From Escherichia phage vB_EcoP_CU10EC, in the sequence record PQ435408.1: a DNA stretch of 64,000 bases; one strand, written 5' to 3'. Positions 1 to 3,468 of this stretch are shown one piece after another. Position numbers and translations under genes: made by a program. The notes beneath the pieces were generated by a model. The model made no database searches. It was not told the origin of the DNA and was given only the letters and a program-made list of their open reading frames with translations. The number at the start of each line of letters is the position of its first letter. Within the stretch, counting starts at the first letter, position 1.

Positions 1-3000
1 TGCGTTTGATGACTGGATTGGTGCCAGGGCAACTAGTAAAACTAGCTTCTTACTACTCAGGTGGTAACACAGGGGGTGGTGAGTTTATTGTCAAGACTGG
101 TTCAGTTGTGGATGATGCTGGTCATATTTGTGTACCTGCTTCTCAATCTGGTATTTACCTGGAACGTCGTACTAGTACTGTTAAGTTTAGTGACTACGGT
201 ATCACTACGGAGAGTAATAGCTCCGGACCACGAGTTGACCAGTCTGACAAGGTACAGGCTGCTATTAACAGAGCTAAGAGCCTTAAGTATGTGCTGGATA
301 CTGAAATAGCTTCAGAAAACCACTACATTTATAATGGTGTCTATGTAGAGAAAGGTATTGATATTACCGGGCTAAAAACTATCCGAGGTTGTTTCTCTTT
401 ACTGTTTGACTCTACTAAAATCGCTGGCTTAACTGCTCCTGGCTATTCTGACATACAATGGGCTTTGATTAACTTAAACGCTAAGTTTGACACTGCTGGC
501 ATCATCTTTGGTACTACTGTAGGTAACCAATCATTCGATAGTATTGTGGTACGTGATGTATCTAACAGAGGTGCATCCTGTGGTGGGCAACTTCATGTTA
601 CATCCGGTACTATGATATCTGGTGCATTATGTGCTACTGATGTTAATGGACCCGGTGTGTGGGTACTTGGTTCTTACGATTCTGTAATTTCAGATATCCG
701 TACAGTGAATTGTGGTAATGCTTTGCTGTGGGCTATTGATATTGCAGGCTACAGGGGTACTCGTGTAGGTAATACCAACTGTATGGTTATTAATAGGATT
801 GAGAGCCATGATTCATTAGACCGTGCTTTGCGTTGTAGTGCAGACCTTTCGGACATTGGAGAGATTCACGTCGAAGCTACAGTAGTTGCTTCTAATGCTG
901 TATCTAGCTCTGCTACTATTGCAGATAATGGCTGGGGTTATGCAAACGTATTGCTTGCAGGATTAGGTACTACTTATGGTTCTGTACGAGATTTACCTGT
1001 ATCTGGTTCTATACCAGCCGTTTTTGAACTGGTCGCAGATGATACCAGTATTGGTGAACTCAGCTTGCCTCGGTCTAGTCTGTCTATTCATTACGCTTTT
1101 ACTACACCCAGAGGGACTTTAAGTGCTGGTACTATAAACCTCTCCGGTGATGTTATTGTAAAAGAGGGGGCTAATACCAATATTGATGCACTAACCGTTA
1201 CAGGGGAATCCTCCAAAATTACCAGCTCTTCCACTAACTTTAATGTTGGTATTTTAAGGGCTACTGGAGCTAATGCCACATTTAATGGTATTGGTGGGCG
1301 TTACGGTAGACTTGACTGTGCTGTAGTTTTCCTAACCGGTAGTGATGTAACAAGGGGTTCTATCACTAATCTTACGTTGGGTGACCGCAATACATTAACT
1401 CAGGTTAATGCTCAGACGCTTTTGGTTAATGGTACTCGAAACTATTTGTCTGATGGTTTTAGAGTCTCTGGTGTTAGTACTTTGAATGGTATTAACAACG
1501 CTGCTAGCAATGCGGTATTTATTGGTGTTGTGACTCTTAAAGACCCATGGAAGTTTGATAAGGTATATATCAACTCTAATCTGGTTTATACAGGCAATAC
1601 TACATCAACCCTCTATGATGTTTCTTTTCAGGACGTGTTTGTAGAAGGTGACTTAATACTATCAGGTGCTTGTCGTATCCATGCTCACAACCTACGCGTT
1701 ATCAATATGCGTATAGGTGCTATGTCTACAGGATTGCGTTTGATGACTGGATTGGTGCCAGGGCAACTAGTAAAACTAGCTTCTTACTACTCAGGTGGTA
1801 ACACAGGGGGTGGTGAGTTTATTGTCAAGACTGGTTCAGTTGTGGATGATGCTGGTCATATTTGTGTACCTGCTTCTCAATCTGGTATTTACCTGGAACG
1901 TCGTACTAGTACTGTTAAGTTTAGTGACTACGGTATCACTACGGAGAGTAATAGCTCCGGACCACGAGTTGACCAGTCTGACAAGGTACAGGCTGCTATT
2001 AACAGAGCTAAGAGCCTTAAGTATGTGCTGGATACTGAAATAGCTTCAGAAAACCACTACATTTATAATGGTGTCTATGTAGAGAAAGGTATTGATATTA
2101 CCGGGCTAAAAACTATCCGAGGTTGTTTCTCTTTACTGTTTGACTCTACTAAAATCGCTGGCTTAACTGCTCCTGGCTATTCTGACATACAATGGGCTTT
2201 GATTAACTTAAACGCTAAGTTTGACACTGCTGGCATCATCTTTGGTACTACTGTAGGTAACCAATCATTCGATAGTATTGTGGTACGTGATGTATCTAAC
2301 AGAGGTGCATCCTGTGGTGGGCAACTTCATGTTACATCCGGTACTATGATATCTGGTGCATTATGTGCTACTGATGTTAATGGACCCGGTGTGTGGGTAC
2401 TTGGTTCTTACGATTCTGTAATTTCAGATATCCGTACAGTGAATTGTGGTAATGCTTTGCTGTGGGCTATTGATATTGCAGGCTACAGGGGTACTCGTGT
2501 AGGTAATACCAACTGTATGGTTATTAATAGGATTGAGAGCCATGATTCATTAGACCGTGCTTTGCGTTGTAGTGCAGACCTTTCGGACATTGGAGAGATT
2601 CACGTCGAAGCTACAGTAGTTGCTTCTAATGCTGTATCTAGCTCTGCTACTATTGCAGATAATGGCTGGGGTTATGCAAACGTATTGCTTGCAGGATTAG
2701 GTACTACTTATGGTTCTGTACGAGATTTACCTGTATCTGGTTCTATACCAGCCGTTTTTGAACTGGTCGCAGATGATACCAGTATTGGTGAACTCAGCTT
2801 GCCTCGGTCTAGTCTGTCTATTCATTACGCTTTTACTACACCCAGAGGGACTTTAAGTGCTGGTACTATAAACCTCTCCGGTGATGTTATTGTAAAAGAG
2901 GGGGCTAATACCAATATTGATGCACTAACCGTTACAGGGGAATCCTCCAAAATTACCAGCTCTTCCACTAACTTTAATGTTGGTATTTTAAGGGCTACTG

Positions 3001-3468
3001 GAGCTAATGCCACATTTAATGGTATTGGTGGGCGTTACGGTAGACTTGACTGTGCTGTAGTTTTCCTAACCGGTAGTGATGTAACAAGGGGTTCTATCAC
3101 TAATCTTACGTTGGGTGACCGCAATACATTAACTCAGGTTAATGCTCAGACGCTTTTGGTTAATGGTACTCGAAACTATTTGTCTGATGGTTTTAGAGTC
3201 TCTGGTGTTAGTACTTTGAATGGTATTAACAACGCTGCTAGCAATGCGGTATTTATTGGTGTTGTGACTCTTAAAGACCCATGGAAGTTTGATAAGGTAT
3301 ATATCAACTCTAATCTGGTTTATACAGGCAATACTACATCAACCCTCTATGATGTTTCTTTTCAGGACGTGTTTGTAGAAGGTGACTTAATACTATCAGG
3401 TGCTTGTCGTATCCATGCTCACAACCTACGCGTTATCAATATGCGTATAGGTGCTATGTCTACAGGAT
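1..3468. repeat. Two head-to-tail copies of a 1734-bp unit (1-1734 and 1735-3468), apparently identical
   Basis: Sequence at i matches i+1734 where compared by eye; ORF track shows identical alternate-frame ORFs at 61..309 / 1795..2043 and 1091..1279 / 2825..3013; the 578-aa protein segment repeats exactly. Confidence 0.9.

Follow-up and report, generated by a model that had tools for sequence, protein, structure and literature searches.

A perfect 1734-nt tandem repeat within a Gamaleyavirus tailspike gene is very probably a contig-concatenation artefact

A tailspike gene fragment in two tandem copies

The window, a 64,000-nt stretch of the Escherichia phage vB_EcoP_CU10EC sequence (PQ435408.1), opens with a 1734-nt block that is present twice in tandem on the plus strand: copy 1 occupies positions 1-1734, beginning at the window edge, and copy 2, 100% identical to it, positions 1735-3468. 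Direct comparison of 1-1734 with 1735-3468 yields zero mismatches over all 1734 positions, and the period-1734 identity ends exactly at 3468, which confirms the preliminary description on this point. The block length is 578 x 3, and frame +3 is free of stops from position 3 to a TAG at 3471-3473; its translation repeats one 578-aa segment and then adds Ser before the stop, giving an apparent ORF of 1155 aa. The earlier statement that one 578-aa segment is encoded twice without a frameshift therefore holds as well, frame +3 being open across both copies. At the junction of the two copies (1715-1754, plus strand) the sequence ...IGAMSTG is fused in frame to LRLMTGLV..., a join for which we found no homologue: all aligned homologues read F-I-V-L-N-N-C... 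after MSTG, and the window returns to the start of the block instead. The first and last parts of the unit were sought elsewhere in the window, as a vertex shared in an assembly graph would show, and gave no matches. The repeat is not a chance occurrence, since the colinear 71-kb genome of AN24P2 contains no exact tandem run of at least 50 nt at any period from 20 to 4000.

By megablast, the window belongs to Gamaleyavirus (N4-like / G7C podophages, Schitoviridae). Positions 3469-64000 are colinear with positions 7834-66218 of AN24P2 (OZ035740) at 88-99% identity, and positions 1-3468 have no counterpart in that genome. Searching the phage collection with 8-25 kb pieces of the window returned no near-identical relative; the best match was AN24P2 (98% over 3469-8200 and 93.5% over 31972-56900). 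The identity to AN24P2 is uneven: 98.5% over 4793-16336 and 88-95% over most of the rest, with unaligned gaps at about 16337-17608, 28711-30266 and 31464-31971. The pattern reflects natural mosaicism or else the co-assembly of strains into a chimera. ARAGORN reports a tRNA-Ile with the unusual anticodon AAT at 30548-30626 on the minus strand, in a region that is poorly conserved with AN24P2. A literature search for a paper on the isolates AN24P2 and NAN33P5 found none.

The block itself has its closest relatives in the tailspike region of other Gamaleyavirus genomes. It is 93.3% identical at the nucleotide level to a single place in each of two phages, positions 4001-5735 of Klebsiella phage vB_Kpl_K57alpha1.2 (excerpt 17469-33802 of OY979416.1; K57alpha1.2 below) and 3814-5548 of NAN33P5, and its translation is 95% identical to the corresponding protein of either phage at 100% coverage. 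The NAN33P5 protein is 900 aa long (ORF at 3006-5708), and the block aligns with its residues from about 270 to 847; a second tail-protein ORF, of 667 aa, comes next. PHROGs classes both products as tail proteins, in each case only as generic tail-protein families. The deposited annotation of OY979416.1 is out of register with its sequence, with the tailspike/portal region labelled rIIA/rIIB/helicase and nearly all CDS flagged as partial pseudogenes. The labels lying under the match (rIIA, helicase and so on, all flagged as pseudogenes) were for that reason set aside.

Among named homologues from outside the genus, the capsule KN4-specific depolymerase of Klebsiella phage KN4-1 comes closest, at 67% identity. 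Neither the unit nor the tailspikes of the relatives matched any family in a Pfam scan; the homologues, to which the unit is related over its full length, carry a precomputed match to PF27114 (Phage_tail_beta). Judged by homology, the gene of the block is a tailspike, that is, a receptor-binding enzyme, the block itself being an internal fragment of tailspike gene 1 that covers the capsule-depolymerase beta-helix. Its content is that of an ordinary member of the Gamaleyavirus tailspike/depolymerase family, and the earlier label of a tail-fibre-like gene was apt, the unit being 95% identical in amino acid sequence to part of a 900-aa Gamaleyavirus tail protein.

None of these relatives is duplicated. 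The module is single copy in 21 of 21 phage records that encode it, and the 1734-nt unit is single copy in K57alpha1.2, NAN33P5 and three further sequences, L006-L008. All 13 protein clusters retrieved from a search among 5.8 billion sequences are 651-899 aa long, and each aligns once over the full unit. The preliminary description had proposed a comparison of fibre-gene length in related phages as a check; this comparison speaks against a duplication, as the homologues measure 651-899 aa (900 aa in NAN33P5) and hold one copy each.

Ends of the block and the break in gene order

We placed the block boundaries on an alignment of the block with eight homologues. The block begins some 20 residues into a segment that most of the eight conserve (...LAKPxGYxLVGxVxSFxxxRL...) and stops 52-53 residues short of a strongly conserved C-terminus that is common to all eight (FIVLNNCVVAGGVEGNYVGSFNVPAIGSITQNFTTG..TGWK...): the unit boundaries cut within conserved sequence and not at domain borders. 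The N-terminal anchor of approximately 270 aa that is present in all Gamaleyavirus homologues was not found anywhere in the window, and neither was tailspike 2. Native Gamaleyavirus tailspike 1, as in NAN33P5 and K57alpha1.2, thus consists of one copy of the module with the anchor at one end and the conserved 52-53-aa tail at the other, whereas the window has two copies and neither end. The ORF running over the two copies, lacking both the native N-terminus and the native C-terminus, is not the intact gene expected of a real duplication.

Comparison of gene order with AN24P2, NAN33P5 and L008 reveals a non-native join at 3449-3488 (plus strand), where the end of the block meets the middle of a small downstream ORF. 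L008 is a 73,088-nt contig from Logan SRR23525258, a cleanly assembled Gamaleyavirus in which tailspike 1 is of the NAN33P5 type (899 aa) and tailspike 2 of the AN24P2 type (767 aa). Such a combination shows natural reassortment of the two tailspike genes in Gamaleyavirus, and L008 offers the best model available of how the phage of the window is natively arranged. NAN33P5 and AN24P2, in turn, diverge completely between about 3.7 and 7.9-8.0 kb, the hypervariable tailspike region. The block end aligns to position 12540 of L008 and 5548 of NAN33P5, and the next nucleotide of the window, 3469, aligns to position 15237 of L008 and 7834 of AN24P2. In the relatives, the DNA that adjoins copy 2 lies 2.3 kb (AN24P2), 2.5 kb (NAN33P5) or 2.7 kb (L008) farther downstream. 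The 2.7 kb skipped relative to L008 hold the final 53 codons of tailspike 1, all of the second tailspike (767 aa) and codons 1-52 of an 84-aa ORF. The TAG at 3471-3473 that closes the 1155-aa frame is an out-of-frame triplet in the remnant of this small ORF, the block being read in frame +3 and the remnant in frame +1.

Exactly one block length separates each of the three boundaries (position 1, 1734/1735 and 3468/3469) from the next, and two of them at least are discontinuities; this is expected of a stand-alone contig inserted twice. The block ends coincide with breaks in synteny (the end at 3468, the start at the window edge), as a contig-concatenation artefact predicts. We also sought the exact unit end and both junctions in independent sequences. 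A 40-mer spanning the copy 1/copy 2 junction had no exact match in viral, metagenome or genome contig collections, a 40-mer spanning the junction of copy 2 with the downstream sequence had none in viral contigs, and neither the unit end nor either junction was matched exactly in the public contig collections searched. A real duplication is therefore not corroborated by a recurrence of its architecture or its junction in independent sequences.

Duplications of k-mer length at five other loci

Five other loci of the window carry tandem duplications: 3469-4018, 4638-4947, 29526-29912, 48275-48584 and 50045-50797. In the three simple cases a 155-nt unit is present twice, the two units differing only at position 78, so that the SNP has 77 nt on either side; exact 77-nt repeats occur at two loci. 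Of the exact runs, 29 in number, 13 measure exactly 77 nt and five measure 78 nt. A k of 77 is a standard top value of SPAdes for 150-nt reads and is standard for short-read assemblers. The duplication lengths are tied to k and 2k+1 and the mismatch sits at the central base, the pattern of an assembly artefact.

At 4638-4947 (plus strand) the two 155-nt units differ at position 78 by A/G alleles, AN24P2 having G, and the duplication splits the endolysin gene: its open frame counts 220 codons in AN24P2 and is broken into 93 + 207 codons in the window, and deletion of one copy restores 220. The locus at 48275-48584 (minus strand, alleles G/A at position 78) splits an 855-aa minus-strand ORF, which is of the same size as an 855-aa gene annotated rIIA in K57alpha1.2, into frames of 604 + 310; with one copy deleted, the frame is 854 codons long. 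At 29526-29912, two 155-nt units with the mismatch at 78 are followed by an exact 77-nt repeat, and the locus falls into the same class of artefact. So does the stack at 50045-50797, in which near-identical units of 221 and 155 nt are piled up with exact runs of 77-78 nt between mismatches; positions 52429-52592 of AN24P2 are represented three times there, and a fourth overlapping piece starts at window position 50650 (AN24P2 52445 onward). The duplications break conserved genes and their collapse restores the reference length, again as expected of an artefact.

The locus that abuts copy 2, 3469-4018 (plus strand), is made of four mutually overlapping short pieces of approximately 154, 152 and 166 nt and then a longer one, which correspond to AN24P2 7834-7988, 7855-8007, 7855-8021 and 7944 onwards. 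These pieces carry three haplotypes of two SNPs lying 3 nt apart (AN24P2 7930 and 7933), followed by an unmerged exact 77-nt overlap, and the three haplotypes imply that the sample contained more than two sequence variants at this site. A k=77 edge between two SNPs 3 nt apart would account for the 152-nt piece, although not all of the pieces fit one simple rule. Successive segments of the window step backwards and overlap on AN24P2 (7834-7988, 7855-8007, 7855-8021, 7944-8795 and 8641 onwards), which indicates contigs abutted in reference order. No tandem runs of at least 50 nt were found in AN24P2 (71 kb), K57alpha1.2, NAN33P5 or L008, as expected if the duplications of the window are artefacts that its relatives lack. 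The five k=77 loci are not biology: they are signatures of assembly.

Origin and meaning of the repeat

Taken with the break in synteny and the missing gene ends, the 1734-nt duplication is very probably an artefact of contig concatenation and not a real feature of the phage. The sample would be a Gamaleyavirus of somewhat heterogeneous strains, and the record a series of contigs or edges from its short-read de Bruijn graph (k = 77), set end to end in genome order with overlaps left unmerged and alternative alleles uncollapsed. The tailspike region, the most variable part of these phages, would have yielded no more than one isolated piece of tailspike gene 1, 1734 nt long. This fragment would have been written twice and joined directly to whichever contig came next, one that begins 2.3-2.7 kb farther along the genome; the 1155-aa ORF would then arise from reading an internal piece of the gene two times over, up to a stop codon that happens to occur in unrelated sequence. 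We infer that the block is one contig, pasted twice by software or by a manual step, and the start of the window is presumably the start of the record.

The other duplications of the window resemble well-known products of de Bruijn assembly, unmerged overlaps and SNP bubbles at k=77, in several respects: exact 77-nt repeats at the joins, 155-nt (2k+1) units, essential-gene frameshifts that vanish on collapse, and pieces that are ordered yet overlapping. The 1734-nt pair differs from these in being a whole piece present twice, and not two alleles or two overlapping neighbours. That it has neither a mismatch between its copies nor a 77-nt overlap at its join, unlike the other duplications, counts against an artefact. 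So does its length, a multiple of three: the reading frame is preserved across the junction of the copies, which has a one-in-three chance of happening under an artefact and is favoured under a real duplication.

The preliminary description had read the repeat as a recent in-frame duplication of a receptor-binding module. Had the depolymerase beta-helix module very recently been duplicated in tandem and in frame, the tailspike gene would encode a receptor-binding protein with two catalytic domains, and the artefacts nearby would be unrelated to this event; the exact period of 578 codons and the uninterrupted frame are what such an event would leave, and tailspike modules do swap between genomes in this group, as the NAN33P5-type tailspike 1 next to AN24P2-type downstream genes in L008 illustrates. 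A real duplication would, however, require a coincident deletion of 2.3-2.7 kb starting at the very last base of the repeat. Such a deletion would leave a truncated enzyme without its conserved C-terminal 52-53 aa and would also take away the second tailspike along with part of another ORF. The unit is cut inside conserved sequence and not at domain borders, no homologue is duplicated, the junction is absent from the collections searched and the record is full of concatenation artefacts. Real duplications of receptor-binding domains in phage fibres are similar in that a receptor-binding or enzymatic module is repeated in frame, but they keep the gene termini and the neighbours, whereas the repeat boundary in the window is a synteny break in a truncated gene. 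We therefore regard a real duplication with unrelated artefacts nearby as highly improbable. The fuller scenario, in which a very recent duplication produced two identical tandem depolymerase modules, the second tailspike gene was lost and the surrounding artefacts are incidental, strikes us as exceedingly improbable. The claim of a recent module duplication is not supported, given the missing conserved ends, the break in synteny and the single-copy homologues.

As a fallback, the same description had suggested an artefact of circularisation or terminal redundancy. A contig whose ends overlap by 1734 nt and that was closed or rotated without trimming would bring the two end copies into tandem, and this would explain both the 100% identity and the position of the repeat at the very start of the window. 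Short-read graph assemblers, however, leave end overlaps of k (here 77) and not of 1734 nt. Because the block does not natively continue into the sequence after copy 2, closing a simple circle fails to explain the join. In colinear relatives the block lies inside the tailspike ORF, approximately 3.8 kb into the record, and not at a phage terminus. The terminal repeats of N4-like phages are a few hundred bases long. A terminal repeat is likewise an unlikely source: the AN24P2 record has none, and the counterpart of the unit lies well inside the records of the relatives. An untrimmed circular overlap is accordingly a very unlikely origin of the repeat. An artefact was thus rightly suspected, though by another mechanism, the k=77 signatures pointing to concatenation of unmerged contigs.

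The main value of the finding of contig concatenation is as a quality flag: the source sequence is a set of unmerged contigs and not a finished genome. It follows that gene calls, repeats and frameshifts in it need checking, among them the 1155-aa "fibre", the split endolysin and the split 855-aa ORF. The 1734-nt repeat says nothing about the evolution of receptor-binding proteins or tail fibres. The underlying biology is ordinary: a capsule-depolymerase module of the NAN33P5/K57alpha1.2 type in a largely AN24P2-like backbone, in keeping with the usual tailspike mosaicism of the group.
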